A DNA stretch of 64,000 nt from a virus (IMGVR_UViG_3300008952_000003:64001-128000); one strand, 5' to 3'; numbered from the stretch's first letter, positions 22,517 through 50,461 are shown. The notes: generated by a model not told the origin, from the sequence alone. Translations and numbers: made by a program.

Positions 22517-23038
22517 ATGGCTACAACATTAGAAATTATTCAAGGAATTACACAAGCTGCAGCAAACGCTTATGATGGTGCTCACGATCAGAGATTTGTG
22601 CCAGATGGAGAAACAAAGGAAATAGGCCTCTCTCGTGAAGAGGGCTGTGCAATCACAGACTCCAGAGTTTCTGATGGTTTCGGTGTAAAAATAATGGGAG
22701 ACGTGCTCCAGATCAATTATGAGGCCAATATCAGATTATCGGATGTCTATGCTAATGGATTTGAAGAAGAGTGCGAAAGAAGGCTGGCAGCAATAGCGGA
22801 TTTTCTAAAAAAAGAATACAAAGTCGTCACCGGCCGATCTTTGGCCCTAAGCCCCCAAGGCGAGGCAGTTTGTGTCGTGCAGCACACCTCCAGAGTCAGG
22901 ACATTTGTTATGGCTCACAAAATGTTTAAAATTGGGGGCCTGAAAGAGGTTGAAACTCTCGGAGAAGGCATAAGTGACCCAATTGCAGTAAAATACCAGA
23001 AGTTTTTGAAAGAAGGCGCCTTTGACAAAAGTGAGTAG
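22517..23038 (+). CDS. hypothetical protein directly upstream of terminase
   Basis: Abuts both neighbours with no gap; no recognisable motif. Confidence 0.7.
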   Translation: MATTLEIIQGITQAAANAYDGAHDQRFVPDGETKEIGLSREEGCAITDSRVSDGFGVKIMGDVLQINYEANIRLSDVYANGFEEECERRLAAIADFLKKEYKVVTGRSLALSPQGEAVCVVQHTSRVRTFVMAHKMFKIGGLKEVETLGEGISDPIAVKYQKFLKEGAFDKSE

Positions 23039-24631: not shown

Positions 24632-26569
24632 ATGGCCGACAGAACTAAAAATCCAAACAATCCACAATCTGAACTTTTTAGGAGATTGACAAGATTATTT
24701 TCTGGTCCGATTATAAATTGGCGGACTCAAATGAATCGAAAGATTCGCAGGACATCTCTGGATAAATATGCGACTCAGTTTAAGTCAGCGTCTGGCCAAC
24801 AATTTAAAAAATCCGAATATAGTCCTTTTGACGTGATGCATTCGAAGATAATGGCGCAACAAAATCGCGCCGAAAGGTATGTCGATTACGAGCAGATGGA
24901 ATATATGCCAGAAATAGCTTCGGCCTTGGATATATATGCAGATGAGATGACGACGCATACCGCACTGACTCCCATGTTGACAATTACGTGCCCCAATGAG
25001 GAAATAAAGGCCATTTTGCGCTCACTTTACGATAATGTACTCAATATTAATCATAATCTTTTTGGCTGGTGCCGCTCGATGTGTAAATATGGAGATATCA
25101 TATTATATATGGACCTCGATGAGAGGTTGGGCGTTAAATCAGTCATCCCTCTTCCACTTCGAGAGATTGAGCGCATGGAGGGCGAAGATCCGTCTAATCC
25201 AAATTATATACAATATCAATGGAACTCCGGAGGGATGACTTTTGAAAATTGGCAGATAGCTCATTTTAGAATTCTTGGAAATGACAAAAATACCCCATAT
25301 GGGACTTCCGTTTTGGACGCTGGCCGAAGAATTTGGCGCCAACTAGTTTTAATGGAGGACGCGATGATGGCTTATCGTATTGTCCGATCATCGGAGAGGA
25401 GGGTTTTCTATATTGATGTTGGGAACATCGCCCCCCAAGACGTTGAGAGTTTTGTGCAAAAAACTATCACTTCAATGAAGCGAAATCAGGTAGTTGATGC
25501 AAACACTGGACGCGTCGACCTTCGTTATAATCCGCTATCTGTCGAAGAGGACTATTTCATCCCGATAAGGGGAGGAGAATCATCAAAAATAGACACACTC
25601 CAGGGCGGACAATTTACTGGAGATATCGACGACGTAAAATATTTGAGAGACAAGCTCTTTTCAGCCCTCAAAATACCATCATCATATTTGTCGAGTGATT
25701 CTGAGGCAGCGATTGAAGATAAAAATACGCTAGCTCAGAAAGATGTTCGCTTTGCAAGAACTATTCAACGGTTACAGCGCTCGGCAATTACAGAGTTGGA
25801 AAAGATAGGGATTGTACACCTATATACTTTGGGATTCCGAGGCGACGATTTAGTCAGCTTCAGACTCAGCTTAAATAATCCATCTAAAATAGCAGAACTA
25901 CAAGAGCTAGAACACTGGAAAACGAAATTTGATATCGCAGGCGGCGCCACAGAGAACTTTTTTAGTAGGCGGTGGATTGCTCAAAATATTTTCGATTTAT
26001 CAGATGAAGAATTTGTCAGAAATCAAAGGGAGATGTTCCACGATAGAAAATATGAGGCTGCACTTGCATCTGCGGCCGAAGAATCCGCCGAAGAGGGTTA
26101 CGATGACGCAGGCGTCGATCTTGGAGGTGAAGAAGATTTCGATCTTGGAGGTGAAGAAGATTTCGATCTTGGAGGTGAAGAGGAAGCAGGGACAGAAACG
26201 GCTGAAGAAGAGCCAGAAAGCCCCCTTTTGGCCGCTCCAGCAAAAAGAAACGACAATGGCCAGAAGTATTCTAAAAACTCACTCCGCCCCTCCGCCAGGG
26301 GCAAAAAATATGTAAATAAAGGCCTTCGAGGAGGAGACGGCCGCAATGGCCGCCCCCAGAGCTATAGAAGTATCGCCATTCCTAAGCCGAAAGAGATTAT
26401 ACCCGGTATGATGGATATGAAAAGCTTATCTCGTGGTATTTACGAGGGCGAGCAGCCTATTTATAAAAACGAAGAAAATATTTTATTGGAATCCAACTTA
26501 GCGGTCAAAAGAGTTATTATGGAATTGCAACAAAATTCGGAGATTAAACTAAATGAAGATGAAACATAA
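24632..26569 (+). CDS. gp20: portal protein (T4 gp20-like)
   Basis: YEQMEYMPEIASALDIYADE, LMEDAMMAYRIVRSSERRVFYIDVGN, EDYFIPIRGG, IDDVKYLRDKLFSALKIP. Confidence 0.95.
   Translation: MADRTKNPNNPQSELFRRLTRLFSGPIINWRTQMNRKIRRTSLDKYATQFKSASGQQFKKSEYSPFDVMHSKIMAQQNRAERYVDYEQMEYMPEIASALDIYADEMTTHTALTPMLTITCPNEEIKAILRSLYDNVLNINHNLFGWCRSMCKYGDIILYMDLDERLGVKSVIPLPLREIERMEGEDPSNPNYIQYQWNSGGMTFENWQIAHFRILGNDKNTPYGTSVLDAGRRIWRQLVLMEDAMMAYRIVRSSERRVFYIDVGNIAPQDVESFVQKTITSMKRNQVVDANTGRVDLRYNPLSVEEDYFIPIRGGESSKIDTLQGGQFTGDIDDVKYLRDKLFSALKIPSSYLSSDSEAAIEDKNTLAQKDVRFARTIQRLQRSAITELEKIGIVHLYTLGFRGDDLVSFRLSLNNPSKIAELQELEHWKTKFDIAGGATENFFSRRWIAQNIFDLSDEEFVRNQREMFHDRKYEAALASAAEESAEEGYDDAGVDLGGEEDFDLGGEEDFDLGGEEEAGTETAEEEPESPLLAAPAKRNDNGQKYSKNSLRPSARGKKYVNKGLRGGDGRNGRPQSYRSIAIPKPKEIIPGMMDMKSLSRGIYEGEQPIYKNEENILLESNLAVKRVIMELQQNSEIKLNEDET
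26115..26181 (+). repeat. 24-bp tandem repeat x2.8 in the portal tail (DLGGEEDF)
   Basis: tcgatcttggaggtgaagaagatt repeated. Confidence 0.9.
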
Positions 26570-36436: not shown

Positions 36437-38176
36437 ATGTCTATTTTAAATAAATTAACTGAAGGTATCGTTCGACGCGATCTTTCTAAAGAAGGTGCCG
36501 CTCTTCTCTCCAAGTGGGAAAAGACTGGTCTTCTTGAGGGGATTTCTAATGAGCGTGCCAAACACGGAATGGCTTCGTTGCTCGAAAACCAAGCTAAAGA
36601 ACTTCTTCGCGAAGCCTCCACCATGGCAGGTGCCGGCGGCGGTGACGTTGAGGGTTTCGCTTCCGTAGCTTTCCCCATCGTCCGCCGCGTCTTCGGTGGT
36701 TTGATCGCAAACGATCTCGTCTCGGTTCAGCCGATGAGCTTGCCTTCTGGCCTCATCTTCTTCCTTGACTTCACACTTCACCCTCGTGATGGTGCCCGCC
36801 TTGATTCTGTTATTGGCGAGTCCGTTTACGGTGGTGGTGTTGTTGCTTCACAAATCACTGGTGGCGTCTCGCTCGCCGGTAACGAAGCAGAGCAGAGCTT
36901 TTATGCTCTGAACAATGGTTACTCCAGCCCGACTGGATCAGTTAGACCACTCGTACTAACTGATCTTGGAGCCGCTTCAGGTACTGTTGGCTCCGGCATT
37001 CCAGGTGACTGGACAGGTACGGGCCCCGGAGGCGCAGCCCTTGCTTCCCTCGGTGACCGCCTCGTCCGCTTCGATCCGGATATCGCTTCCGGCACTGCAG
37101 CATGCGTTGTTTCTGTGCCCCTCGCGACATTCACCGCTGGCCAGTTGAATATCAAGGATTATGTCACAATCACCCTTGATGATAACGCAGGCACAGTCGA
37201 TGCAACCCAGGTCCGCAGATTGACCCGCGACGATCCCAATACTGCAGCAAATATTCTGCTTGTAACATCAGATGGTACAAATACTATAACACTCTCTGGT
37301 ACTATGACCACTGCACCCAAAGGAGCTTCTTTTGTCATTGACGATGCGTTCCAGGCAGCAGGTGCTATTGGTTCTGTCGAAGGTATCGACGTCTGGGGTC
37401 TTGAGAATGAAGAACGTATCCCAGAAATCGACATCAAAGTCGATTCTGTGGCTGTGACCGCAAAGACCAAAAAGCTCAAAGCTAAGTGGACGCCTGAATT
37501 GGCACAAGACTTGAACGCTTATCATAATCTCGATGCAGAGGTTGAGTTGACTAGTATTCTGTCTGAGCACATTGCTCTTGAGATTGACCAAGAAATCTTG
37601 GAAGACCTTATCAAAGGTGCTACTGCTGAAACCCTGTTTTGGTCGCGACTTCCTGGAAAATTCGTGAATCGTGTCACTGGCGGCGCTCTGGATTCCGTAA
37701 CTAACGGCTTCCCAGACTTCACCGGCAACGTTAGCGAATGGTATGAGACCCTCGTCGAGACCATCAATGACGTCTCCGCACAGATCCACAGAAAGACACT
37801 TCGTGGTGGTGCCAACTTCATCGTTGTTTCGCCTGAAGTTGCAAACCTCCTCGAATTCACTGCTGGATTCCGTGGATCCGTCACTCACGATGATGATCGT
37901 GGGCAAGTTGGTGCAGTCAGAGTTGGCTCCTTGAGCAAGAAGTTTGACGTATATGTTGATCCTTACTTCCCGAGAAACGTTGTTCTCGCGGGTCGCAAAG
38001 GCTCCTCATTCCTCGAAAGTGGATACGTTTACGCTCCGTATGTGCCGCTCCAGATGACTCCTACCATTTTTGGTACTGAGGATTTCGTGCCGCGCAAAGG
38101 CGTCATGACTCGTTATGCCAAGAAAATGGTTCGTCCTGATATGTATGGACTTGTCATTGTTCAAGATCTTGTATAA
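36437..38176 (+). CDS. gp23: major capsid protein (T4 gp23-like)
   Basis: AFPIVRRVFGGLIANDLVSVQPMSLPSGLIF, KTKKLKAKWTPELAQDLNAYH, EIDQEIL, GYVYAPYVPL, PRKGVMTRYAKKMVRPDMYG. Confidence 0.97.
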   Translation: MSILNKLTEGIVRRDLSKEGAALLSKWEKTGLLEGISNERAKHGMASLLENQAKELLREASTMAGAGGGDVEGFASVAFPIVRRVFGGLIANDLVSVQPMSLPSGLIFFLDFTLHPRDGARLDSVIGESVYGGGVVASQITGGVSLAGNEAEQSFYALNNGYSSPTGSVRPLVLTDLGAASGTVGSGIPGDWTGTGPGGAALASLGDRLVRFDPDIASGTAACVVSVPLATFTAGQLNIKDYVTITLDDNAGTVDATQVRRLTRDDPNTAANILLVTSDGTNTITLSGTMTTAPKGASFVIDDAFQAAGAIGSVEGIDVWGLENEERIPEIDIKVDSVAVTAKTKKLKAKWTPELAQDLNAYHNLDAEVELTSILSEHIALEIDQEILEDLIKGATAETLFWSRLPGKFVNRVTGGALDSVTNGFPDFTGNVSEWYETLVETINDVSAQIHRKTLRGGANFIVVSPEVANLLEFTAGFRGSVTHDDDRGQVGAVRVGSLSKKFDVYVDPYFPRNVVLAGRKGSSFLESGYVYAPYVPLQMTPTIFGTEDFVPRKGVMTRYAKKMVRPDMYGLVIVQDLV

Positions 38177-38209
38177 TAGCCGAATAGCTACACAATAAGA
38201 GAATTAATG

Positions 38210-38240
38210 CCCTCCCACTTTTTGTGGGGGGGTTTTGTTT
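38210..38240 (+). terminator. intrinsic terminator after the MCP
   Basis: Stem ccctcccac / gtggggggg, then ttttgttt. Confidence 0.8.
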
Positions 38241-38248
38241 ATCTAGAA

Positions 38249-38258
38249 ACTACTTAAT
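38249..38258 (+). promoter_or_regulatory. putative late promoter motif ACTACTTAAT (neck / yeaH-spoVR-prkA operon)
   Basis: Lies just after the MCP terminator, 26 nt before ATG 38275; RBS AGGAGG. Confidence 0.6.
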
Positions 38259-38274
38259 CTAGGAGGAAACAACT

Positions 38275-39543
38275 ATGGCGCTACCGACATTAACCCCCGC
38301 AAGCCAGATGAGTAAAGCGATCTTGCCCCCCACGGGCAATGTGAATAACGTTTCCGCCGCTGTACCATATGGAATGTACACCGGATCGGCTGATTTTCTG
38401 TCCGGCGCCTCTGATCAGGTTGCTTATACTTATAAGAAACTGGGCGGCGATGTTTTGGATATCGAATTGAAGGCGGCAAATGTATATGCGAATTATGAAG
38501 AGGCGGTCTTAGAATATAGCTACCTGATAAATCTACATCAGACAAGAAATGTTCTTTCCGATGTCCTCGGCCAGGCAACTGGAACATTCGATCACCATGG
38601 CGAATCAAAAACGGGCCCAGAAAACGTAAATTTAAAATATCCACGAGTCATGTTCGAATACGCCAGGAGAGTTGGTGATGGAATATCTTTTGAAGCTAAC
38701 GTTGGTGGAACTATTCCGATATACTCGGCCTCCTTTAAATTAAAGGAAAATCAGCAGGACTACAATTTGCAATCAATAATCTCATCCTCAGCCGCCTCTG
38801 GCGTAGATCCAACCGGAAATGCCGTTCCATTTGCTGGAATAGTGGGAGATAAAAGAGTTATTGTAAAGAAAGTTTATTATAAGACGCCTCACGCTATGTG
38901 GAGGTTTTTTGGCTATTTTGGGGGCCTCAATGTGGTTGGAAATCTAAATTATTATGGACAGTTTACAGATGATTCATCATTCGAATTGGTGCCGACTTGG
39001 CAAAACAAACTTCAGGCAATGGCCTTTGAAGATAACTTATGGACAAGACTATCTCATTATTCATATGAACTGAAAAATAACCGATTAAGAATATATCCGA
39101 TTCCTCAAATATTGAGTACTTATTTGTATATGTGGGTCGAATTTTCAGTTATACCAAATAGCTGGGATGAGTCACCAGACTATGATTCTGGTACAGATGG
39201 AATTAACAATTTAAATACGGTTCCTTTTGACAACTTACCTTATAAGAATATCAATGCCATCGGAAAGCAGTGGATCAGGCGCTTCGCTCTTGCACTCTCG
39301 AAGGAGACCCTGGGCCAGATAAGAGGAAAGTTTCAGACAATACCAATTCCAGGAGAATCAGTAACTCTCAATGCTACTGATTTGTTATCGCAGGCAAAGG
39401 ATGAGCAAGAAAAATTGAGAACAGAGTTGAAGGAGATTATGGATCAACTGACATATGTGGAGATGGCAAAAAGTGATGCTGAGAAGGTCGAAGCAGTGGG
39501 ATCAATTCAGAAAACAATCCCAAGGCTGATATATCAAGGATAA
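38275..39543 (+). CDS. neck protein (T4 gp13-like)
   Basis: KKLGGDVLDIEL, KQWIRRFALALSKETLGQIRGKF, GESVTLNATDLLSQAKDEQEKL. Confidence 0.8.
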   Translation: MALPTLTPASQMSKAILPPTGNVNNVSAAVPYGMYTGSADFLSGASDQVAYTYKKLGGDVLDIELKAANVYANYEEAVLEYSYLINLHQTRNVLSDVLGQATGTFDHHGESKTGPENVNLKYPRVMFEYARRVGDGISFEANVGGTIPIYSASFKLKENQQDYNLQSIISSSAASGVDPTGNAVPFAGIVGDKRVIVKKVYYKTPHAMWRFFGYFGGLNVVGNLNYYGQFTDDSSFELVPTWQNKLQAMAFEDNLWTRLSHYSYELKNNRLRIYPIPQILSTYLYMWVEFSVIPNSWDESPDYDSGTDGINNLNTVPFDNLPYKNINAIGKQWIRRFALALSKETLGQIRGKFQTIPIPGESVTLNATDLLSQAKDEQEKLRTELKEIMDQLTYVEMAKSDAEKVEAVGSIQKTIPRLIYQG

Positions 39544-39546
39544 AAC

Positions 39547-40422
39547 ATGAGCAGTGAAAAAGAAAAGTTTCAGGGTTTTCGTCCTTATTTTAAGGAAGAC
39601 CTCTTAGATGACAGTCGAGTTCCATTGAAGGAGATCTCCCTGATGCCATCAACAGTGGAAACTATTGATCTGGCCCTTTTTGATTGGGTTAGTGAAACAA
39701 TGGATTTATATTGCACGACCAATGAGGGATGGAAGAAAGTTCCTATTATATGGTCGATGCCCGAGAGATCATTTCAGATAAAAGACAATAAAGATTTGAG
39801 AAATTCTAATAATATCTTCACGCTCCCCGTGATATCAATCGAGAGAAAATCTTTAATAAAGGATCCAAGCATGAAAGGCGTTGCATGGGCCCATTTACCA
39901 CAATATAATGATCCTCGCGGAGGAACTATAGAGGTATCCAGGAGAATTCAGCAAGATAAGACGTCGAACTTTGCTAATGCCACATCGCAAAGAAAGTTTA
40001 AACAGCAAAATTTCCCATTTAATAACAAGAAAGTAGTCTACGAAACGGTCACAATGCCAATTCCCACATATGTGGTAGCAACTTATTCTTTGGTCATTAG
40101 CACTGAATATCAGCAACAAATGAACGAGATTTTTACTCCATTTTTAACGACCACTGGACAAATTAACAATTTCTTTATACATAGAGACGGGCACAAGTTC
40201 GAAGGATTCATTCAGAATGATCCATCTCTGGATAACAATTTATCAGACTTAGCAGAAAAAGAAAGAAAGTTTAAAACTACGATTGATTTAAAAGTATTGG
40301 GGTATTTGTTGAGCGCCGGCAAGAACGACGAACGCCCCAAAATTACGATCAGGGAGAATGCGGTAGAGGTTCGTATGCCGAGAGAGAGAGTTATATTTGG
40401 GGATAAAAAGGAATATAAATAA
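39547..40422 (+). CDS. tail completion / sheath stabiliser (T4 gp15-like)
   Basis: KVPIIWSMPER...TLPVISIER; MPIPTYVVATYSL..STEYQQQMNEI. Confidence 0.7.
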   Translation: MSSEKEKFQGFRPYFKEDLLDDSRVPLKEISLMPSTVETIDLALFDWVSETMDLYCTTNEGWKKVPIIWSMPERSFQIKDNKDLRNSNNIFTLPVISIERKSLIKDPSMKGVAWAHLPQYNDPRGGTIEVSRRIQQDKTSNFANATSQRKFKQQNFPFNNKKVVYETVTMPIPTYVVATYSLVISTEYQQQMNEIFTPFLTTTGQINNFFIHRDGHKFEGFIQNDPSLDNNLSDLAEKERKFKTTIDLKVLGYLLSAGKNDERPKITIRENAVEVRMPRERVIFGDKKEYK

Positions 40423-41255
40423 TGGCGGATGATGAAAAAAAGTGGAGCAGACCGTCGAACCCGCCACCGCCTCTTTTTTTGGGCGAGAGCGAAAGAAACT
40501 TAGTTAAGCAAGTTAACGATGAACTGATAGAGCGAGTCATCGGCCAGGCTATCACTTACCTCCCTATTTCCATGGAGAGGACAAATTTTCATCCACTTTA
40601 CGGCGAAGCGATAGAAAAAAGTTTCATGCCCCCAGTTAGAGTCTACGCGCTTGTGGAATTTCCGGGAATAACCACAACAACTGATCACTATGGGTTGGAT
40701 AAGGAATATCCAATAACGGTTAGATTTCACGAAAGAAGGCTTTTTGAAGATCAGGATTTGTACATCCGAGAAGGTGATTATATTCAATATGGAACATCAT
40801 TTTTTGAAATTGTATCTCTGAAGGAGGACCGCCAGCTTTTTGGCCAGGTTGAACATCTTTTCCAGATCGAGGCCAAATGTATAAAGACCAGAAAAGGACT
40901 CATAGATCTGGATGTGCTCCCACCTGAGACGATTTCTGCAATCATTGAAAGTTCGGACTCTGAATCTGCATCAACCTCTGGCGGCGGCCCATCATCAACA
41001 CCCACCCAGGTCGTGAGAGTGTGCTATGTGAATGATGCTACAGTGCTCCTAGCGGCAGATACGTCGCTCAATGGGTTTCTGGGCGTGGGAGAATTGTCAC
41101 TTACCACCGCAGCAGTATATGAAGACGGCCTGCGTCAAAAATTAACAGGACTCCCGGCAACTGGTGATTATTATATCGATGATGGCACCTTGTATAGTGT
41201 TATGGATATTGAGATCGACCAACGTGTTTTATTGGAGGTCTTGACTTTGGTATGA
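40422..41255 (+). CDS. head completion / neck protein (T4 gp14-like) with a C-terminal extension
   Basis: ERNLVKQVNDELIERVIGQAITYLPI...LYGEA, REGDYIQY..FFEIV; about 110 extra aa after a Ser/Gly linker. Confidence 0.75.
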   Translation: MADDEKKWSRPSNPPPPLFLGESERNLVKQVNDELIERVIGQAITYLPISMERTNFHPLYGEAIEKSFMPPVRVYALVEFPGITTTTDHYGLDKEYPITVRFHERRLFEDQDLYIREGDYIQYGTSFFEIVSLKEDRQLFGQVEHLFQIEAKCIKTRKGLIDLDVLPPETISAIIESSDSESASTSGGGPSSTPTQVVRVCYVNDATVLLAADTSLNGFLGVGELSLTTAAVYEDGLRQKLTGLPATGDYYIDDGTLYSVMDIEIDQRVLLEVLTLV

Positions 41256-42460
41256 GTACTTTTCGTGAACATAAATCAGTTGCAGACCGGTCGGCATCGG
41301 ACAGGAAGAGACACAAACATAAGATCGAGAAAGCACTCCGAGAGGGAATCAAGGATGTAGTCGCCGATGAATCCATTATCGGCCAGGACGGCAAAAAGAG
41401 AATAAAGATTCCAGTAAAAGGAATCAAGGAATATCAATTTATATATGGTGAGAATAAAGACAATAATAAAGCCGGCTCAGCCGGCGATAAACAAGTCAAA
41501 AAGGGTCAAATTTTAAGAAAAAAGCCACGAAAGGGAAAAGGCAAAGCCCCCGGTAAGAAAGGCAGTGACGAGCCGGGAGAAGAATATTACGAAGTAGAAA
41601 TAACTCTAGAAGAGTTGGCAGAATATTTATTTGATAATTTGGATTTGCCTGATTTACAAAAAAAGAAGTTTAGGTTTATTAAAGATAAAAAACTCAAAAG
41701 ACGCGGCTACCGAAAGAAGGGAATCAGAACTAGACTATCGAAGAAAGAAACGATAAAAAGAAAGATAAGAAGAAAAAAGAGAGCCATAGCTTCCGGAGCC
41801 TTTGATCCCGAGGGTGAAGAGAGATTCCCATTCCACCAGGATGACTTGAAATATAAACATATGAAAATAAAGAATGTTGAGAATAGCTCAGCAGTCGTCT
41901 TCTTTCTTATGGATGTATCAGGGTCTATGGACAAAAATAAGAAATATTTAGCACGAAGTTTTTATTTCCTACTGTATCAGTTCTTGAGATATCGATATGA
42001 GAATATTGATGTGGTTTTTATATCTCATTCAACAGAAGCTAAGGAAGTTGGCGAATCGGAATTCTTTGAAAGGGCCACTTCCGGAGGAACTCTAATGTCT
42101 TCAGCCCTCCAGATGGAAAAAGACATCATAGAGAAAAGATATCATCCGTCTTCATGGAATATTTATACTTTTTATTGCGGCGACGGAGAAAATTGGACCA
42201 TTGATAATGCAAAATCAATAGACTTGATAAAGTCGTTGGCAGAGGTTAATCAAATGGTGTGCTATGCAGAAATTAATCCGTTCTTCGCTTCCGGGTCAGA
42301 TAATGATACATTTTTTGTGTTACGCCCGGAAAATGACCCTAATAGTATTTGGTCACGCTTAGGAGTACTTGAAGGTGGGAACATAAAGATGGTAAGAATG
42401 GCCACTCCCGAAGATATCTGGCCATCTTTTCAGAAACTGTTTGGGGGTGATATTTCATGA
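41252..42460 (+). CDS. yeaH: YeaH/YhbH (DUF444) vWA-domain protein
   Basis: DRKRH..KI, IKIPVKGIKEYQF, YEVEITLEELAEYLF..LDLPDL, MIDAS MDVSGSM, GGT, GDGEN. Confidence 0.92.
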   Translation: MSTFREHKSVADRSASDRKRHKHKIEKALREGIKDVVADESIIGQDGKKRIKIPVKGIKEYQFIYGENKDNNKAGSAGDKQVKKGQILRKKPRKGKGKAPGKKGSDEPGEEYYEVEITLEELAEYLFDNLDLPDLQKKKFRFIKDKKLKRRGYRKKGIRTRLSKKETIKRKIRRKKRAIASGAFDPEGEERFPFHQDDLKYKHMKIKNVENSSAVVFFLMDVSGSMDKNKKYLARSFYFLLYQFLRYRYENIDVVFISHSTEAKEVGESEFFERATSGGTLMSSALQMEKDIIEKRYHPSSWNIYTFYCGDGENWTIDNAKSIDLIKSLAEVNQMVCYAEINPFFASGSDNDTFFVLRPENDPNSIWSRLGVLEGGNIKMVRMATPEDIWPSFQKLFGGDIS

Positions 42461-43758
42461 GGGACTGGACTGTAAAAGAATTACAAAAATGGGATAAAGA
42501 AATTTGCAAAATAGCAAAAGAAAAATATGATCTTGATTGGTTCCCAATAGAATATGAGATATTGGATTATCATGAGATGTTGAGTTCTATGGCGTACAGT
42601 GGCCTGCCGACTCACTATCGACATTGGTCATTCGGAAAAGCGTTCGAGAGGACCTCTACTCGCTACAACTTGGGAATGGAGGGTCTGCCATACGAGATGA
42701 TCATTAATAGCGATCCTAGCATTGCCTATTTGATGCTTGAGAATCCAATGAGTATACATTTACTAACAATGGCACACTGTGTGGGTCATTCTGATTTTTT
42801 TAAAAATAATCGCATGTTTAAAGATACGGATCCTGCAAATATCATATCTAAATTTAAATCAGCATCAAAAAGAGTAAGGGATTATATCGAAGATCCAAGT
42901 ATTGGAATTGATAAAGTAGAGGCAATGTTGGATGCATGCCACTCAATACAGTATCAAGTACAAAGGACTCCTGGAATAATAAGAGATGCGGATACTGACA
43001 AAAAAGAAACAGAAAATAATAGTAAAAAAATAATAAATGAATTATTTCATTTCGAAAACTTGAAGGATTATAATTTGCTTGGCTTCATAAAAGAGAACTC
43101 TCGCAATTTGGAGGACTGGCAAAGAGATTTGGTGGGGATGGTTGAGAGGAGGTCTCAATATTTTATTCCACAAGCGAAAACAAAGATCATGAACGAAGGC
43201 TGGGCAGTCACAATTCATGAAAAGATCATGAACGATTTAAAACTACCAGACAAATATCAAATAGCTTTTTTGAAATCGCATAATCAAGTTGTGAGGCCGG
43301 TAGTTGGCAGAATTAATCCATATCACCTTGGATATAGCATGTTCAAGAAGATAGAGAAGCAGCGCGGATTTGAGGAGTGTAAGCTGGTTCGAGAGACGCA
43401 TGACGACGAGGCTTTTATAAGGAAATACTTAGATGAAGAATTGTGCAGAGAGCTAAATCTATTCAGTTATTCCTACAATAGACTGGGAAGAAAATACTCA
43501 ATTAGTGATATTTCTGACAAAGAAGGGTGGAAAAGCGTGAGAGACGCCCTAATTAGCAATGTGGGACTTAACAGCGTGCCCGTTGTTTATGTCGATAAGT
43601 TTAATAAGAAAATGAATATCCTTTATTTGAAACACGAGCATGACGGCAGAGATCTGGAGATCAAATATGCAAACAAGGTGTATGATCATATTAGATTTTT
43701 GTGGGATGATGATATAATATTTACTTCCATTTTGGAAGGTGAACTATGGGAATTTTAA
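42457..43758 (+). CDS. spoVR: SpoVR/YcgB family protein
   Basis: GLPTHYRHWSFGKAF, GLPYEMIINSDPSIAYLM, AHCVGHSDFFKNN, KTKIMNEGWA, NPYHLG. Confidence 0.93.
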   Translation: MRDWTVKELQKWDKEICKIAKEKYDLDWFPIEYEILDYHEMLSSMAYSGLPTHYRHWSFGKAFERTSTRYNLGMEGLPYEMIINSDPSIAYLMLENPMSIHLLTMAHCVGHSDFFKNNRMFKDTDPANIISKFKSASKRVRDYIEDPSIGIDKVEAMLDACHSIQYQVQRTPGIIRDADTDKKETENNSKKIINELFHFENLKDYNLLGFIKENSRNLEDWQRDLVGMVERRSQYFIPQAKTKIMNEGWAVTIHEKIMNDLKLPDKYQIAFLKSHNQVVRPVVGRINPYHLGYSMFKKIEKQRGFEECKLVRETHDDEAFIRKYLDEELCRELNLFSYSYNRLGRKYSISDISDKEGWKSVRDALISNVGLNSVPVVYVDKFNKKMNILYLKHEHDGRDLEIKYANKVYDHIRFLWDDDIIFTSILEGELWEF

Positions 43759-43759
43759 G

Positions 43760-45694
43760 ATGACAAAAACAAATGAATTTTTAGATATCGTTGAGAAGAG
43801 AAGCAAGGAAAAAAAGAGAAGTAAGTTTTCTGGTGCTTTTTCCGACTATTTGGATTTGGTGGAAGAAGACAGAGGAATTTCCATCTTGGCTCACAGAAGG
43901 CTATATGATACAATAAAATCCTACGGAATAACAAGAATGACGCCAGATGACGGCCGCTGCGCAAATCTATTTAATGGCGAAAAAATAAGAACCTACGACT
44001 ATTTTCAGTCCAATTTCTTTGGTATGGAGAGGTCCTTGGCTAAAATTATGAGATATTTGCACTCTGCGGCCATGCGAGGCGAGGAGAGCAAGCAAGTTCT
44101 TCTTCTGCTGGGCCCAGTTGGGGCTGGAAAATCTGCTCTAATCGAACATATCAAACGCGCTTTGGAGTCTGCAGGCTCATTTTATCAAATAGGTGGTTGT
44201 CCGATTCAAGAGGAGCCGCTACATTTGGTTCCGAGGAGCTTGAGGGAGGAATTTAAGAATATTTATGGGATCTCGATTGAGGGAGATTTGTGTCCCGTCT
44301 GTCGACATAATTTGCTAAATGAGTACGACGGTGATTATTTAAACATGCCAGTGGTTGAGACGACTTTCTCAATAAGGGGTCGCAGAGGTATCGGAGTTGT
44401 TCCGCCGATGGACGCAAATACTCAAGATACCAGCATCTTGATAGGCTCTGAGGATATTTCTAAGTTAGATTTGTATCCCGAAGACGACCCGAGAGCCCTG
44501 AGTTTTAATGGGGCCTTTAATGTCGGAAATCGAGGGATTGTTGAGTTTGTAGAGGTATTCAAAAATGAGATAGAATTTCTCCACACCATGATCACAGCAA
44601 CGCAAGAGAAGGCTATTCCAAGCCCCGGAAAGGGCGCCATGATTTATTTCGATGGGGTTATATTAGCTCACTGCAATGAGGCAGAATGGAATAAGTTTAA
44701 ATCAGAGAACACCAATGAGGCTATTCTAGATAGAATTGTTAGAGTGAATGTTCCATATTGCCTTGAGGTCACAGAAGAACAGAAGATATATCAAAAAATG
44801 CTCGATGAGTCTGATTTTGATGCACATATTGCACCACACACGCTTGAAATTGCAGCAATGTTCGCTGTACTATCCCGTCTAAAGATCTCCAACAAGGTTG
44901 ATCCCATTACAAAGATGAAGATTTACAATGGGGAGGAAATTGTTGAGAAGGGATATATTAAGAAAATCGATATTAATGATCTCAGAGAAGAGGCGAGAGA
45001 TGAGGGAATGACTGGCCTCTCAACTAGATTCATAATGAAATCAATCGACGCCGCTTTGGCCGATTCGGATAGAAATATGGTTACTCCTATATCAATTCGA
45101 GATGCTCTGGTGAAACAAGTCAAAGAACAAGTTGTCGTCGAAGAGCTAAGAGAAAAGTATCTATCATTTCTCCAGAAAGAGCTTCACGATGAATATTTGA
45201 GAATACTAGAAAAAGAAATAACCAAAGCTTTTGTTTCTGCGTATAAAGAGCAGGCTGAATCACTCTTTGACAATTATCTTGATCATGCTGAAGCGTATGT
45301 CAACGCCACAAAGGTGAAGGATAACATCACCGGAGAGGAGATGGTCGCTGATGAGGAATTTTTGTGCTCCATTGAAGAGCAAATTGGTATTGTCGGCTCG
45401 GCACGAGAAAACTTCAGAGCAGATATAACTGCTTATATGTTTGCCAAGTTGAGAAGAAAAGAGAAAATTGACTGGAGAGCATACGGCCCGCTTAAAGAAG
45501 CAATCGAGAACAAACTATTGGATTCGGTGAGAGACATATCCAGAATTGTGACTAAATCAAAGTCCAGAGACAATAAGCAGAAAAAGAAATACAATGAGAT
45601 GGTCAAGACTCTCATTGAGGACTATGGATATAGCGAAGATTCTGCAAATGAAATTATTAAATATGCCTCGAATAATCTCTGGCGCGATAGCTAA
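43760..45694 (+). CDS. prkA: PrkA/YeaG family AAA+ ATPase / serine kinase
   Basis: Likely start ATG 43760 (ORF open from 43739); FFGMERSL, LLLLGPVGAGKS, CPIQEEPLHLVP, NRGIVEFVEVFK, HCNEAEW, EAILDRIV. Confidence 0.93.
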   Translation: MTKTNEFLDIVEKRSKEKKRSKFSGAFSDYLDLVEEDRGISILAHRRLYDTIKSYGITRMTPDDGRCANLFNGEKIRTYDYFQSNFFGMERSLAKIMRYLHSAAMRGEESKQVLLLLGPVGAGKSALIEHIKRALESAGSFYQIGGCPIQEEPLHLVPRSLREEFKNIYGISIEGDLCPVCRHNLLNEYDGDYLNMPVVETTFSIRGRRGIGVVPPMDANTQDTSILIGSEDISKLDLYPEDDPRALSFNGAFNVGNRGIVEFVEVFKNEIEFLHTMITATQEKAIPSPGKGAMIYFDGVILAHCNEAEWNKFKSENTNEAILDRIVRVNVPYCLEVTEEQKIYQKMLDESDFDAHIAPHTLEIAAMFAVLSRLKISNKVDPITKMKIYNGEEIVEKGYIKKIDINDLREEARDEGMTGLSTRFIMKSIDAALADSDRNMVTPISIRDALVKQVKEQVVVEELREKYLSFLQKELHDEYLRILEKEITKAFVSAYKEQAESLFDNYLDHAEAYVNATKVKDNITGEEMVADEEFLCSIEEQIGIVGSARENFRADITAYMFAKLRRKEKIDWRAYGPLKEAIENKLLDSVRDISRIVTKSKSRDNKQKKKYNEMVKTLIEDYGYSEDSANEIIKYASNNLWRDS

Positions 45695-45721
45695 GATATT
45701 TTAAAAAATAGTATTTAAAAT

Positions 45722-45757
45722 AAGCCCCTTATTTCATTTAGAAAAGGGGCTTCTTTG
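45722..45757 (+). terminator. intrinsic terminator after prkA
   Basis: aagcccctt (45722-45730) / aaggggctt (45744-45752), then ctttg. Confidence 0.7.
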
Positions 45758-45889
45758 TGTCTTTTCGATATCGGACTCTCTATGTATTCCCGGACAAGGA
45801 TATAAATCACTCTCGTCCCTGGTTTCTTTAACAATGTTTATCGAAACTGGCATATTTTAATTTCAAAACAATAAGGAGAAAATAACAAT

Positions 45890-47020
45890 ATGGCTAAAAC
45901 AAGAATTAATGTCCGTCAGGTCGACCTGGAACTTGCAGGTGGAGCCTCGGACTATGAAACAATGGCAGAAGCAGTCGCCGCAGAGGGCGCAGCCCTCGTT
46001 GGTAAGCTGGTTCCTGCTAAGTTTGACCCAAAATATTTGGGTGTTAGTCTTTCTGTCGCCGATTATGACGGTGCAGCATCTGACTATACAATCGTAAACA
46101 AGGGAGTACTGACCTCCCTGTCAGCCTCAATCACGGCTACCACAGACCTCCACATGAGCTACCTGAACGCCGATTATAATGCCCTCCTGACGGCTTCGGC
46201 TGAACGTGCAGCACTTCAGGCTGATATTGATCAGAACGAAGCAGACGCAGACGCAGCAATCGCAGCACTTCAAGCTGACGTTGATCAGAACGAAACAGAC
46301 GGCGATACCGATCGCGCAGCAATTCGCTCTGAATTCGCAGCAGCAGATGCAATCCAGTGGAAGAACGTGCTAGGCGCCGTAGGCGCAGTTCAAGCTGACG
46401 TTGATCAGAACGAAACAGACGGCGATACCGATCGCGCAGCAATTCGCTCTGAATTCGCAGCAGCAGATACAGCAATTCTGCTCCAAATCGCTACGAACCT
46501 AACAAACGGTACCGCAGCCCTCGCAGCAGTTCAAGCTGACGTTGACGGTAACGAAGCAGACGCTGACGCAGCAGACGCAGTTCTCCAGGGTCAGATTACA
46601 TCTAACGATGCCGACATCGCTACGAACGCCGCCGACATCGCAACAGAGACAGCACGCGCTCTTGCAGCAGAAGCAGTTAATGCTGGCTTGATTAGTGCAG
46701 AAGCGACTCGCGCTACTGCAGCAGAAGGTGTACTCACCACAGATGTGTTGGAACTCAACGCTGATGTCCTCGCACTTCACGGAAGACACTTCAGAGCAAG
46801 TAGTGTTGTAGTTGCAGGAGGCGCCCATGGTGTTTCTGTTTCTCCAGCAGACGCAGGCTCGTTGCAAGTATTTGTTAACGGTCTACTTAAAGTGGCTGGA
46901 GACGATTACACTGTAACTGCAGACGGAAACGGTTCTGTTACTGACGTTAGTGTTCTTGGTTGTGAAGCAGGTGATGATGTCACCGTCATGGGTCAAGGAT
47001 ACGTGTCTCTAACATCGTAA
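45890..47020 (+). CDS. repeat-rich coiled-coil virion fibre protein
   Basis: QADVDQNE(A/T)D repeats, ETARALAAE/EATRATAAE, C-terminal LQVFVNGLLKVAGDDYTV; RBS TAAGGAG. Confidence 0.75.
   Translation: MAKTRINVRQVDLELAGGASDYETMAEAVAAEGAALVGKLVPAKFDPKYLGVSLSVADYDGAASDYTIVNKGVLTSLSASITATTDLHMSYLNADYNALLTASAERAALQADIDQNEADADAAIAALQADVDQNETDGDTDRAAIRSEFAAADAIQWKNVLGAVGAVQADVDQNETDGDTDRAAIRSEFAAADTAILLQIATNLTNGTAALAAVQADVDGNEADADAADAVLQGQITSNDADIATNAADIATETARALAAEAVNAGLISAEATRATAAEGVLTTDVLELNADVLALHGRHFRASSVVVAGGAHGVSVSPADAGSLQVFVNGLLKVAGDDYTVTADGNGSVTDVSVLGCEAGDDVTVMGQGYVSLTS
46269..46468 (+). repeat. 80-bp exact direct repeat, period 120 bp (QADVDQNETDGDTDRAAIRSEFAAAD)
   Basis: 46269-46348 is identical to 46389-46468; degenerate copies lie near 46212 and 46530. 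Confidence 0.92.
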
Positions 47021-47065: not shown

Positions 47066-47099
47066 GGCCCTCCCAAATTAATGGGAGGGCCTTTTTTTT
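47066..47099 (+). terminator. intrinsic terminator
   Basis: ggccctccca / tgggagggcc followed by T8. Confidence 0.9.
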
Positions 47100-47102
47100 A
47101 AA

Positions 47103-47605: not shown

Positions 47606-50461
47606 ATGTCAGTCAAAAAGTTCAAATTTGTATCGCCAGGTGTGTTTTTAAGCGAAGTTGACAATTCGCAACTACCTGCTGCAGAGCGAGAAATCGGACC
47701 ACTTCTTGTAGGCCGAACCCAATTCGGACCAGCCATGAGGCCCGTCACGGTCCAGTCTTTTTCGGAATATGTAGAGACTTTTGGAAATCCAGTGCCAGGG
47801 TCATCCGGCGGGGATGTCTGGAGAGATGGTAACCAGCAGGGCCCCACCTATGCGGCTTACGCAGCCCAAGCTTATCTTAAGGCGGACGTGGGCCCAGTGA
47901 CAATGGTTCGTTTGTTGGGTTCGGACAATCCAGACTTCATCGGAAGTCCGGTCGCATCAAATCGCGCCGCCGCAGGTTGGGCGACAGAAGGCACAATTGA
48001 CCCAGGAAACGACGGTGGCGCCTATGCCCTGGTTGTTTGCAATAGTTCTTCTACACCCACTGGAGAAGTCCAAACAGCAACGATAGGGGCTATCTGGTAC
48101 ATCAATGACGGCACAATATCCCTAAGCGGAACTCTCGCCGGCCCTGGAGGGGCAACCAGCCAAACTGGCTCATATGCACTCTTCAGAAACAATGGGTCAG
48201 CATTCAATCCAGAATATACAGCTATCATAAAGGACTCGGGAGGAAATATAGTCCACAAGACTGCATTCAATGGAGATCCTGATTCTGCCAAGTATATTCG
48301 CAATGTTTTTAATACAAATCCACAACTGTTAAACTCGGATGTGGTGGACACAAGTGCCTTTTCTCATGGAGAGGATCTATATTGGCTTGGTGAAACATTC
48401 GAGGGTGCTTTATCAACAAAGAATTTAAGTAATCCGGACGCAATGATCGTTGCTCTAGGAAATGATATAGGAACTGTCAGCAGATCCGATATGAAAGAGA
48501 ACTACCGAGAGGCATCTACTGGCTGGTTCATTTCTCAGGATTTAACAACAGATACCGGATCTTACAGCCCCAGAACTCAAGACACTCTCTTCAGAATTGT
48601 CGCGAGAGATGCGGGCGAGAGCATACAAAATACTTTAAAAATATCAATACAAAATGTCAAAGCATCTACGAGTCTTCTTGATCAATATGGAACCTTCGAT
48701 GTTGTCGTGAGAAGAGCCAACGATTCGGACAATGTTGTAAAGTATGTTGAAAGATATACCAATCTGTCCCTCAATCCTGCTTCTGATAATTACATCGGTG
48801 TCAAGATAGGTGACAAATACACAGAATATGATGATGACCAAAAGAGACTTAGAGAATATGGCGAATATAATAATCAATCAAAATACATTCGAGTGGACAT
48901 TAGAGATGACGTAGCATCAGGTCTAACTGATGCAAAATATCTTCCATTTGGAGTGCAGGGCCCCAGAATCCCCGCCCCCGTTACTATGAGTAGCGGCTCC
49001 ACAACTATGACCGTGCCGCTAGGTCTCGGGTCAATAATAGTCACCGGATCATTAGCGGCCGATACGAAGGCATCAGCAACATCGATGTATGATGCTGGGG
49101 GATACATCCAACATACCTGTTCTGTGGAGTGGCCCCTGGTTACCTTAAGACACTCCGCTTCTGACGGGGGGATTGGAAATCCAAAGGACGCATTCTTTGG
49201 TGCCCAATCATCAACACAGGTCTCCCTCAATGACAATATTAACTTCGATCAAGGCTACGGCGACCTTCTACGGGCTTTTCCAACAGCCCTCGAAGGTACT
49301 ATGGCAGCCGGCTGGGTATTCTCTCTGGATGATGTAGTCATCAGTGGATCTGCCACAGCATTTTATCAAGAAAACTCCAGAGTAAACGGCAATTCGGCAA
49401 CAGCCCAGGGTGACTACAAGTCTATCTTGGAGGCTGGATATGATAGTTTTACTGCTCCTCTTTATGGTGGGTTTGATGGATTAAACATCACGGAAATTGA
49501 GCCATTTAGAAATAGCGCAATGACTTCCGCAGATAATGAGTTCACCAACTATGCTTTCAACTCAATACAACAGGCGCTTAATAGCGTGGCAGACCCAGAG
49601 GTGGCTGAATACAACCTCCTCGCTGTTCCTGGATTGACGAATACAAAGTTAACACAGCACATGATCAACACTTGTGAAGACCGCGCAGACGCGCTAGCAG
49701 TTGTTGACTTAGGGAGTGTTTATGAGCCCTTTACTGAGACAACCGACTCCTTTAAAGAAAGAATAAGCACGCCAAAGGATGCCGTAGACGCACTTAGGTT
49801 GAGGCAAATTGATTCTTCATACGCTTGCACCTATTTTCCATGGGTCCAGGTTAGGGATACGATCGCCTCACGCCTCTTGTGGGTACCACCTTCAGTAATC
49901 GGCCTTGGAGTCATGGCTAACTCGGAAGCAAAATCAGAAGTCTGGTTCGCCCCGGCTGGCTTTAATCGCGGAGGACTCACAGAGGGATCTGCAGGCCTCC
50001 CAGTCGCGGGATTGACATATAAGTTGACTTCGAAAGATAGGGATCTTCTCTACGATGCGAGCGTTAATCCAATCGCCTCATTTCCTTCCGAAGGAATCGT
50101 GGTCTTTGGACAAAAGACTATGCAAGTTCAGAGATCTGCACTCGATAGAATCAATGTCAGAAGACTAATGATTTTCATCAAGAAGCAGGTTTCCAGAATC
50201 TCTTCAGGTCTCTTGTTTGATCAAAATGTTAGCGTGACGTGGGAAAGGTTCTTGAATCAAGTCAACCCTCTGTTGGCTAGTATCCAATCCAGACTCGGCT
50301 TAACTGAGTTTAAGGTGGTCTTGGATGAAACAACTACGACCCCGGATTTGATAGATCAAAACATCATGTATGCCAAGATATTCTTGAAGCCCGCAAGAGC
50401 TATTGAATTCATCGCAGTTGATTTTGTGATCACAAGATCCGGCGCATCTTTTGATGATTAA
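47606..50461 (+). CDS. gp18: tail sheath protein (T4 gp18-like)
   Basis: FVSPGVFLSEVD, GRTQFGPAMRP, VWFAPAGFNRG, NPIASFPSEGIVVFGQKT, LDRINVRRL, LKPARAIEFIAVDF. Confidence 0.96.
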   Translation: MSVKKFKFVSPGVFLSEVDNSQLPAAEREIGPLLVGRTQFGPAMRPVTVQSFSEYVETFGNPVPGSSGGDVWRDGNQQGPTYAAYAAQAYLKADVGPVTMVRLLGSDNPDFIGSPVASNRAAAGWATEGTIDPGNDGGAYALVVCNSSSTPTGEVQTATIGAIWYINDGTISLSGTLAGPGGATSQTGSYALFRNNGSAFNPEYTAIIKDSGGNIVHKTAFNGDPDSAKYIRNVFNTNPQLLNSDVVDTSAFSHGEDLYWLGETFEGALSTKNLSNPDAMIVALGNDIGTVSRSDMKENYREASTGWFISQDLTTDTGSYSPRTQDTLFRIVARDAGESIQNTLKISIQNVKASTSLLDQYGTFDVVVRRANDSDNVVKYVERYTNLSLNPASDNYIGVKIGDKYTEYDDDQKRLREYGEYNNQSKYIRVDIRDDVASGLTDAKYLPFGVQGPRIPAPVTMSSGSTTMTVPLGLGSIIVTGSLAADTKASATSMYDAGGYIQHTCSVEWPLVTLRHSASDGGIGNPKDAFFGAQSSTQVSLNDNINFDQGYGDLLRAFPTALEGTMAAGWVFSLDDVVISGSATAFYQENSRVNGNSATAQGDYKSILEAGYDSFTAPLYGGFDGLNITEIEPFRNSAMTSADNEFTNYAFNSIQQALNSVADPEVAEYNLLAVPGLTNTKLTQHMINTCEDRADALAVVDLGSVYEPFTETTDSFKERISTPKDAVDALRLRQIDSSYACTYFPWVQVRDTIASRLLWVPPSVIGLGVMANSEAKSEVWFAPAGFNRGGLTEGSAGLPVAGLTYKLTSKDRDLLYDASVNPIASFPSEGIVVFGQKTMQVQRSALDRINVRRLMIFIKKQVSRISSGLLFDQNVSVTWERFLNQVNPLLASIQSRLGLTEFKVVLDETTTTPDLIDQNIMYAKIFLKPARAIEFIAVDFVITRSGASFDD

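Follow-up and report, generated by a model that had tools for sequence, protein, structure and literature searches.

A yeaH-spoVR-prkA cassette of an uncultured marine T4-related myovirus and its phage relatives, located behind neck-type genes in one sublineage

The window analysed in this work is a stretch of 64,000 nucleotides, bases 64001-128000 of the 193,157-bp IMG/VR virus record IMGVR_UViG_3300008952_000003, which is rated complete by CheckV. Its source is an uncultured 193-kb marine T4-related myovirus, and directly behind three neck-type genes it carries homologues of three bacterial genes: yeaH (yhbH), spoVR (ycgB) and prkA (yeaG). On the + strand, yeaH (41252-42460) encodes a DUF444 vWA protein of 402 amino acids (PF04285, E-value 2.5e-109, 366.6 bits for a cut-off of 27), spoVR (42457-43758) a protein of 433 amino acids (PF04293, 1.2e-118, 396.9 bits for a cut-off of 27), and prkA (43760-45694, with an alternative GTG start at 43739) a protein of 644 amino acids composed of an AAA+ ATPase and a PrkA C-terminal domain (PF08298, 5.5e-144, 480.1 bits; PF06798, 5.7e-79, 265.8 bits; both cut-offs 25). 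The stop of the third neck-type gene overlaps the start of yeaH by the bases ATGA (41252-41255), yeaH and spoVR are joined by the same overlap (42457-42460), and the spoVR/prkA junction reads TAA-G-ATG (43756-43762), so that the prkA ATG lies 1 nt past the spoVR stop. Altogether, six + strand genes spaced by no more than 3 nt throughout extend from a promoter-like motif at 38248 to a hairpin terminator at 45723-45751. The triad has the orientation of the neck-type genes and is joined to them by translational coupling, and the six are predicted to form a single transcription unit. The G+C content of the trio genes (0.37-0.41) is similar to or under that of their flanks.

Profile searches placed the three products within their families at some distance from the cellular prototypes. 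All the NCBIfam equivalog models scored below cut-off (PRK15455, 408.9 against 576 bits; TIGR02877, 383.6 against 467.95 bits; PRK11767, 276.2 against 679 bits), TIGR02877 matching the window YeaH with an E-value of 9.6e-115, and the SpoVR_C domain reached 22.2 in the window SpoVR for a cut-off of 27.6; by these scores the phage PrkA, YeaH and SpoVR are divergent family members and not equivalogs. The YeaH translation contains FFLMDVSGSM, SGGT and CGDGEN, and the residues of its metal ion-dependent adhesion site (MIDAS; D221-x-S223-x-S225, T280 and D311) are conserved in 84 of 84 phage and 71 of 71 cellular rows. In PrkA the Walker A motif is GPVGAGKS, with K124/S125, E262/E265 and R325 invariant, while the SpoVR translation includes AHCVGHSDFF and MNEGWA (H107-x3-H111 and N246-E-G-W-A), with H107, H111, E247 and H254 invariant in 85 phage and 65 cellular rows. 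Taking the three proteins together, the catalytic-type residues showed no variation in 84-85 phage rows and 65-80 cellular rows. An initial annotation of this DNA had described an intact triad, and rightly so: the family scores lie far over the Pfam cut-offs, the MIDAS (DVSGS, T, D), GPVGAGKS, HCVGH and NEGWA motifs that it cited are all read in the translations, and the ATGA overlaps and the 1-nt gap are confirmed by the open reading frame coordinates and the junction sequence.

The window PrkA aligned over its full length to a solved ‘serine protein kinase’ (9xip, E-value 1e-99) and weakly to Lon AAA+ modules, and no solved relative of YeaH or SpoVR was found by sequence. Against AAA_5 it scored 16.8 bits, under the cut-off of 22, which places it outside the MoxR family. 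A reading of the trio as a defence system was rejected, since none of the three proteins matched a PADLOC defence-system model at E <= 0.01. Long fused forms of PrkA also exist: five proteins of 1000-1570 amino acids (P0125, P0128, P0148, P0157 and P0171) match PrkA just over its C-terminal two-thirds, beginning near residue 218.

SpoVR was modelled with AlphaFold from a 38-row alignment (predicted local distance difference test score, pLDDT, 83.7; predicted template modelling score, pTM, 0.83). A Foldseek search of the model against the PDB returned nothing at E <= 0.001. When the model was compared by VIA-align with 48,161 chains, the top 50 matches were almost all zincin metallopeptidases, with Z values of 11.6-6.3, in a range (under about 13) where a match between helical proteins may reflect a common arrangement. 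These matches covered model residues 1 to about 335, with 107-196 residues aligned (at least 162 in all but two) at a root-mean-square deviation of about 4 Å, and included DUF885 proteins, M1 aminopeptidases, M3, M30 and M32 peptidases, thermolysin, angiotensin-converting enzyme and collagenase. The H-x3-H motif appears as HC(V/I)GH in the phage clade and as HVYGH in the cellular SpoVR and in that of the T4-like phage L099, and the glutamate of NEGWA/NEGFA is conserved 131-166 residues downstream of it. We take the NEGWA glutamate, E247, to resemble the NEGFA motif that supplies the third zinc ligand in M1 peptidases. Going by the model, we describe SpoVR as a putative zincin-fold protein that lacks the canonical general base and probably binds metal, with H107, H111 and E247 as putative ligands. 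The zincin-like character proposed in the initial annotation finds some support in the VIA-align search, but not in the motif itself, from which the catalytic glutamate is absent. Our literature search found no paper that calls SpoVR a zincin.

The motif in front of the run, AACTACTTA, belongs to a recurrent AACTAYTTA family and occupies positions 38248-38256 (+), 27 nt before the ATG at 38275. It follows an intrinsic terminator placed after the capsid gene (38209-38233, +), formed by a 10-pair stem with 7 GC pairs and a T run and folding at -23.2 kcal/mol (z -3.87). At the other end, the hairpin after prkA (45723-45751, +) consists of AAGCCCCUU...AAGGGGCUU and a U-rich tail, within a 71-nt stretch that folds at -17.2 kcal/mol (z -2.99); it was not listed by the terminator pattern scanner, an omission probably explained by the long loop. 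The window has 11 copies of AACTAYTTA, every one on the + strand, where 1.09 would be expected; none of 100 shuffles reached 11, and no copy is found past 55 kb. Genome-wide there are 21 copies on the + strand and 2 on the - strand, most of them followed at 13-45 nt by a ribosome-binding site and start codon. The genes that the motif precedes include the adaptor-like gene (38248), a 133-amino-acid gene, the tail sheath, the tail tube (phrog_4542) and several unannotated genes, and when ten genes downstream of the motif were compared with PHROGs the tail tube alone received a name. The word differs from the T4-type late promoter, whose consensus TATAAATA lies about 10 nt upstream of the late start, and its late timing can reasonably be inferred from the sheath, tube and adaptor genes downstream of it. 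No exact copy occurs between 38257 and 47101, the next one being at 47102, and the six-gene run includes weak + strand sigma70-like matches (best 9/12) and weak terminator-like hairpins, which may act as internal transcription signals. The late-type motif of the initial annotation exists as a motif, with its start corrected from 38249 to 38248, and together with a terminator it brackets the run; the claim that no promoter or terminator lies inside it stands for exact copies of the motif, but not for weaker signals.

The cassette appeared to be widespread in environmental phages. A megablast search of the region against cultured phages gave nothing, and tblastn with PrkA detected just 17 phage records, all at 31-34% identity (Thermus phages, the Ralstonia phage RsoM2USA, Enterobacter phage LAU1 and four megaphage contigs). 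Metagenomes provided more than 120 protein clusters with identities of 75-95%, Tara Oceans being the source of some, and at least 155 IMG/VR contigs, of up to 293 kb, carry a relative. We examined 80 of these 155 loci, with PrkA identities of 62-92%. The order yeaH-spoVR-prkA, with the same tight spacing, was kept in 81 of 83 phage-clade loci, the other 2 being broken off at contig ends. These counts mark the cassette as an accessory module that characterizes a large clade of phages. Below the clade, an exhaustive search of 1.84 billion cluster representatives showed PrkA identity dropping to 55%, then to 49-50% and then to 41% or less. The representative at 55% lies in a cellular-looking context with the order prkA-yeaH-spoVR. 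Its relatives in genome assemblies number 207; most carry the label Bdellovibrionota or Oligoflexia, and contigs of 1.4-3.3 Mb bear some of them. Among the 80 of these relatives that were examined, 70 show prkA-yeaH-spoVR and ten are broken off at contig ends. The initial annotation had pointed out that the vWA-SpoVR-AAA+ order of the window departs from the yeaG-yeaH order, and the departure turns out to be general, with prkA last throughout the intact phage-clade loci and first in the intact loci of the sister clade.

In the PrkA tree (74 rows, IQ-TREE, LG+G4, quick search) the phage clade forms one side of a branch with a Shimodaira-Hasegawa-like approximate likelihood ratio support (SH-aLRT) of 100 and is sister to the cellular clade (97), while the Thermus phages, RsoM2USA and L099 are placed elsewhere. 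The SpoVR and YeaH trees gave the same split and the same nearest neighbours, which indicates that the three genes travelled together. On this evidence the trio has been acquired by phages at least four independent times. Among ten genes compared with the nearest relative, L008, the non-synonymous divergence (dN) was lowest in PrkA (0.049), with values of 0.078, 0.096 and 0.105 in SpoVR, the capsid gene and YeaH, respectively; synonymous sites are saturated even at this distance, and dN/dS is not computable for most genes. Judged by these dN values and by the invariant residues, the trio is held under strong purifying selection. Three contigs bearing a phage-type trio (L090, L091 and L092) are binned in metagenome-assembled genomes (MAGs) labelled Luteolibacter, Halobacteriovorax and Bdellovibrionota. 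Using such labels for host inference was rejected, as the contigs labelled Luteolibacter and Halobacteriovorax bear the phage clade's own accessory neighbours, and L090 and L091 are probably mis-binned phage contigs. L092 shares its MAG with a contig that has a cellular-type trio (L137), their G+C contents being 0.48 and 0.54.

The location of the cassette varies within the clade. In 19 of the 80 related loci, all with at least 77% PrkA identity, it lies among homologues of the structural genes of the window phage. A homologue of a PIN-PhoH gene is found no more than 10 kb downstream in another 35, abutting prkA in L021, L026, L027, L052 and L053, and the remaining 26 have neither kind of neighbour. 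The alternative neighbours are homologues of accessory genes of the window genome, encoding PIN-PhoH, a PD-(D/E)XK nuclease, glycosyltransferases and nucleotidyltransferases. The PIN-PhoH fusion of the window phage itself (PF13638 and PF02562; G000 23001-24335, L088:2001-3335) lies outside the window, and two genes past it a 230-amino-acid protein (G000 24664-25356, L088:3664-4356) gives a sub-threshold match to the ATLF zincin family (PF07737, 24.1 against 27.4 bits), so that a second zincin-like product may be encoded in the accessory region. On the PrkA tree one state change suffices to explain the position, and PhoH-linked loci occur on both deep branches, which makes the PhoH-linked position the more parsimonious ancestral state. 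The loci in structural position were recovered as one group with low support (40), a grouping that was not rejected. By parsimony, the neck-operon position would be a derived relocation in one sublineage. Wiring of the triad into the neck operon, as the initial annotation put it, agrees with the gene layout of the window, but it is a lineage-specific trait in the gene-neighbourhood survey (19 of 80 loci).

Promoter-like motifs also accompany the cassette elsewhere in the clade. AACTAYTTA stands at most 160 nt upstream of yeaH in 12 loci, at -13 to -27 in ten of these, and other relatives show variants of the CTACTTATATA or CTATTTACATA type (CTAYTTA) before yeaH and after a terminator. The cassette in the window has no AACTAYTTA copy of its own and, going by the sequence signals, would depend on the promoter of the neck genes. 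In close relatives (L005:1-7372 and L006:2294-7447), a LamG/Laminin_G_3 repeat protein of 1717-2603 amino acids and a terminator stand between the neck genes and yeaH; the window has no such protein. The nearest cultured relatives by capsid, Microcystis phage Mel-JY01 and the Flavobacterium immuto phages, possess homologues of the major capsid protein and of two neck-type genes, the second and the third, and have no PrkA. A more distant case is L099 (4327-15116 of Logan contig SRR22048058_7788), where portal, S77 protease, scaffold and Gp23 capsid genes and a 153-amino-acid gene are followed by prkA-yeaH-spoVR. Its PrkA is just 40% identical to that of the window and sits elsewhere in the tree, and the gene order is cellular; L099 represents an independent capture just after the capsid gene.

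The three neck-type genes upstream of the trio can be named with different degrees of confidence. The first (38275-39543, +; 422 amino acids), earlier labelled gp13-like, is neck/adaptor-like, as its C-terminal part, and that part only, matches phrog_211 (head-tail adaptor Ad2, E-value 1.9e-11); its synteny is kept in relatives with 74-88% identity. The second (39547-40422, +; 291 amino acids) and the third (40422-41255, +; 277 amino acids) gave no match in Pfam, PHROG or NCBIfam. Protein-language-model look-alike clusters of the second carry PF16724 (T4-gp15_tss) in 52% and 38% of their members (score 0.93), pointing to a probable gp15-like tail-sheath stabiliser/terminator, and those of the third include PF11649 (T4_neck-protein) in 11% of members (score 0.92), pointing to a probable gp14-like neck protein whose AlphaFold model was too poor for a structure search (pLDDT 46, 10-row alignment). 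The gp13-, gp15- and gp14-like labels of the initial annotation are plausible as leads, helped by the partial PHROG match and the look-alikes, but they are not established identities, two of the genes having no profile match.

Upstream of the run lies the Gp23-type major capsid gene (36437-38176, +; PF07068, 2.7e-73). Its product is long (579 amino acids) and matches the Pfam model and most phage capsid genes as two disconnected segments, a pattern suggestive of an N-terminal half that is inserted or divergent. Downstream, the trio is followed by a 376-amino-acid gene (45890-47020), a strong terminator (47066-47091), the 133-amino-acid gene and the tail sheath gene (47606-50461). Neither the 376- nor the 133-amino-acid product had a match in PHROG, Pfam or NCBIfam. 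No AACTAYTTA precedes the former gene, just a weak sigma70-like match at 45828-45856, and its homologue in relatives (e.g. L023:10528-11895) reaches 771-841 amino acids and has a unit of about 60 residues repeated several times in tandem, so that it looks like a variable-length repeat protein between trio and sheath.

Studies on cellular organisms provide the frame in which these data can be interpreted. The genes of the cellular trio are mutual best cofitness partners, with r > 0.7 in six bacteria (bioRxiv 10.1101/072470). Carbon-starved E. coli requires YeaG, renamed SpdA, to degrade its cytoplasmic proteins, a slow and non-specific process that provides new synthesis with amino acids and ATP (PMC13684143). 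The PrkA of B. subtilis was reported to hydrolyse casein in an ATP- and Walker A-dependent manner, an activity abolished in a K108A mutant (PMC9512850), and the PrkA AAA+ domain has been likened to the YME1/FtsH clade (PMC13001217). Phage-borne trios are already annotated in phiYS40 and RsoM2USA. Our literature search found no functional study of the trios of cultured phages, and no paper on when the phiYS40 trio is expressed or on its presence in virions.

Bringing these lines together, we propose that the phage makes the trio along with its structural proteins and turns over or remodels host cytoplasmic proteins, aiding virion production in starved marine hosts, a proposal to which we give an even chance of being correct. 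The cassette was acquired once from a bacterial prkA-yeaH-spoVR operon, of which the closest sampled type is mostly found in MAGs labelled Bdellovibrionota, and its order was permuted, leaving prkA last. In most clade members it would have stayed by PIN-PhoH, often with an AACTAYTTA copy of its own, while in the sublineage of the window it would have been transferred whole to the space that separates the neck genes from the sheath gene, would have lost its own promoter and would be expressed by read-through from the promoter of the neck genes. The three proteins would act together as their cellular homologues do, PrkA serving as an ATP-driven motor, YeaH as a MIDAS-bearing adaptor and SpoVR as a metal-binding, zincin-like partner, and would drive a broad turnover or remodelling of host cytoplasmic proteins like that attributed to E. 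coli YeaG/SpdA in starvation. In nutrient-poor hosts, amino acids and energy would thereby be freed at the time when the most abundant phage proteins are produced. The option of acting on host physiology to override dormancy, which the initial annotation had raised, keeps a place in this proposal and, after the YeaG/SpdA work, is better recast as host-protein turnover. In its boldest form, which we offer as speculation of low probability, the trio would be a three-chain FtsH-like ATP-dependent protease, its AAA+ unfoldase joined by a MIDAS adaptor and by a zincin-fold subunit whose active site is non-canonical. Several unrelated large-phage groups would have captured it independently and would express it with structural genes, converting host proteome into amino acids in an autophagy-like bulk recycling.

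Several facts weigh against host-protein turnover. SpoVR has H-x3-H without the catalytic glutamate of HExxH in every lineage checked, position 2 being Cys or Val, and the protein may bind metal without cutting. E. coli degrades just a few percent of its proteome each hour (PMC13684143), a flux that may be slow for a lytic cycle, and neither protease nor kinase activity was seen with highly purified PrkA of B. anthracis (PMC13001217), so that the protease status of PrkA is disputed. The late meaning of AACTAYTTA comes only from the genes downstream. Finally, three independent phage lineages have the trio in morphogenesis modules, which also fits an assembly-linked role; they are the window sublineage, L099 and the Thermus phage Lalka8, in which the order is portal, minor head protein, vWA, SpoVR, PrkA, two small genes and large terminase subunit (TerL). 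We read this recurrence as selection for late, high expression and not for assembly, while recognizing that it keeps the assembly alternative alive.

That alternative, the first option of the initial annotation, holds that an AAA+/vWA/zincin-like machine remodels or controls the quality of capsid, neck or tail intermediates. The translational coupling of the trio to a neck-type gene, its place between the neck and sheath genes, and the independent trios found after a Gp23-type capsid gene (L099) and between the minor head protein and TerL (Lalka8) are what it would lead one to expect. Yet 61 of the 80 clade loci are not among structural genes, 35 of them being next to PhoH, nuclease and glycosyltransferase genes, and the cultured relatives that share the capsid and two neck-type homologues do without the PrkA of the trio. 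Moreover, the cellular homologues function without any virion, the phage has T4-type morphogenesis genes of its own, and the three proteins evolve as a self-contained cassette. The position survey and the cultured relatives thus disfavour a role in virion assembly, and we judge it quite improbable. The possibility that the genes are passenger DNA, that is, a recent host insertion, a chimeric assembly or a decaying remnant, has nothing on its side except that the families themselves are of bacterial origin. Five assemblies made independently from other samples (L008, L010, L019, L020 and L055) share the 41250 junction, and L008 repeats the gene order downstream of the trio, which answers the concern about mis-assembly at 41250 or 45700, and the tree check on recent host transfer found a monophyletic phage clade, with members down to 62% identity to the window PrkA, whose nearest cellular PrkA stands at 55%. 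The catalytic-type residues are invariant, the dN of PrkA is the lowest in the region and the G+C content does not exceed that of the flanks. Shared junctions, identity gap, monophyly and low dN exclude recent transfer, decay and mis-assembly, and this reading, already refuted, keeps only a vanishing probability.

A role in signalling or dormancy control, which we regard as unlikely, would make the trio a kinase-like or AAA+ remodelling device that switches the host stationary-phase or stress programme on or off without bulk proteolysis, so that a starving cell is either kept productive or barred from dormancy. It would suit the link of the cassette in the wider clade to PIN-PhoH, a starvation-associated phage accessory gene, and the proposal that the cellular trio is one signalling pathway with species-specific outputs (bioRxiv 10.1101/072470). 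Likewise, the PrkA of B. anthracis affects sporulation-gene expression and survival of osmotic stress with no detectable protease activity (PMC13001217), and among the ‘sporulation’ accessory genes of oxygen-minimum-zone viromes spoVR was reported to be the most abundant (PMC8940887). Against these observations, kinase activity was not reproduced for the PrkA of B. subtilis or B. anthracis, the yeaG phenotype in E. coli is a broad loss of protein degradation, and no target is known. A regulator would, in addition, be expected to act early, while the signals found here put the genes behind motifs of structural-gene promoters. The probability left over beyond these readings and host-protein turnover is assigned to other roles.

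The biochemical role of PrkA, YeaH and SpoVR has been an open problem for about 30 years, and YeaG was tied to bulk proteolysis in starvation only in 2026. A large and abundant clade of ocean phages keeps the trio, with the dN of PrkA and SpoVR under that of the capsid gene. The four or more separate acquisitions, combined with strong constraint, argue that the module gives a direct and portable benefit to the virus, and the phage trio offers a compact, host-independent version of the system for testing. Our data further suggest that the ‘sporulation’ labels given to viral spoVR in marine viromes are misleading. To these points the window adds the presumably derived position in the neck operon, the promoter-like motif that accompanies the cassette in some relatives, and a zincin-like model of SpoVR without the catalytic glutamate.

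Compared with known systems, the trio resembles MoxR-type pairs such as NorQ/NorD and CobS/CobT in combining an AAA+ motor with a MIDAS-bearing vWA protein; since the window PrkA lies outside the MoxR family, the AAA+/vWA pairing is an analogy and not a matter of membership. With SpoVR read as a putative zincin, it would contain the same kinds of parts as the AAA+ zincin proteases FtsH and YME1, distributed over three chains, but PrkA has no protease domain of its own, SpoVR carries HCVGH instead of HExxH, and a complex of the three proteins is hypothetical. Among cultured phages, the Thermus phages phiYS40, TMA and Lalka8 have a complete trio in the vWA-SpoVR-PrkA order near portal, head and terminase genes, and the Ralstonia jumbo phage RsoM2USA also has a complete trio, but in the cellular order and within an accessory-gene context. 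The PrkA proteins of these phages are only 31-34% identical to that of the window and fall in separate parts of the tree, which indicates independent acquisitions. The closest known system is the cellular prkA(yeaG/spdA)-yeaH(yhbH)-spoVR(ycgB) module. Both share the three Pfam families at full length, adjacent and co-oriented, with identical Walker A, MIDAS and SpoVR His/Glu residues, and the cellular genes form the sister group in the PrkA tree. They differ in gene order, yeaH-spoVR-prkA in the phage and prkA-yeaH-spoVR in the cell, a feature that is typical but not strictly defining, and in sequence, the identity to the cellular sister clade being 55% for PrkA and about 40% for YeaH and SpoVR, with a phage SpoVR about 45 residues shorter. 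Unlike their cellular counterparts, the phage genes reside on a lytic-type phage, behind a phage promoter-like motif instead of a stress sigma-factor promoter.

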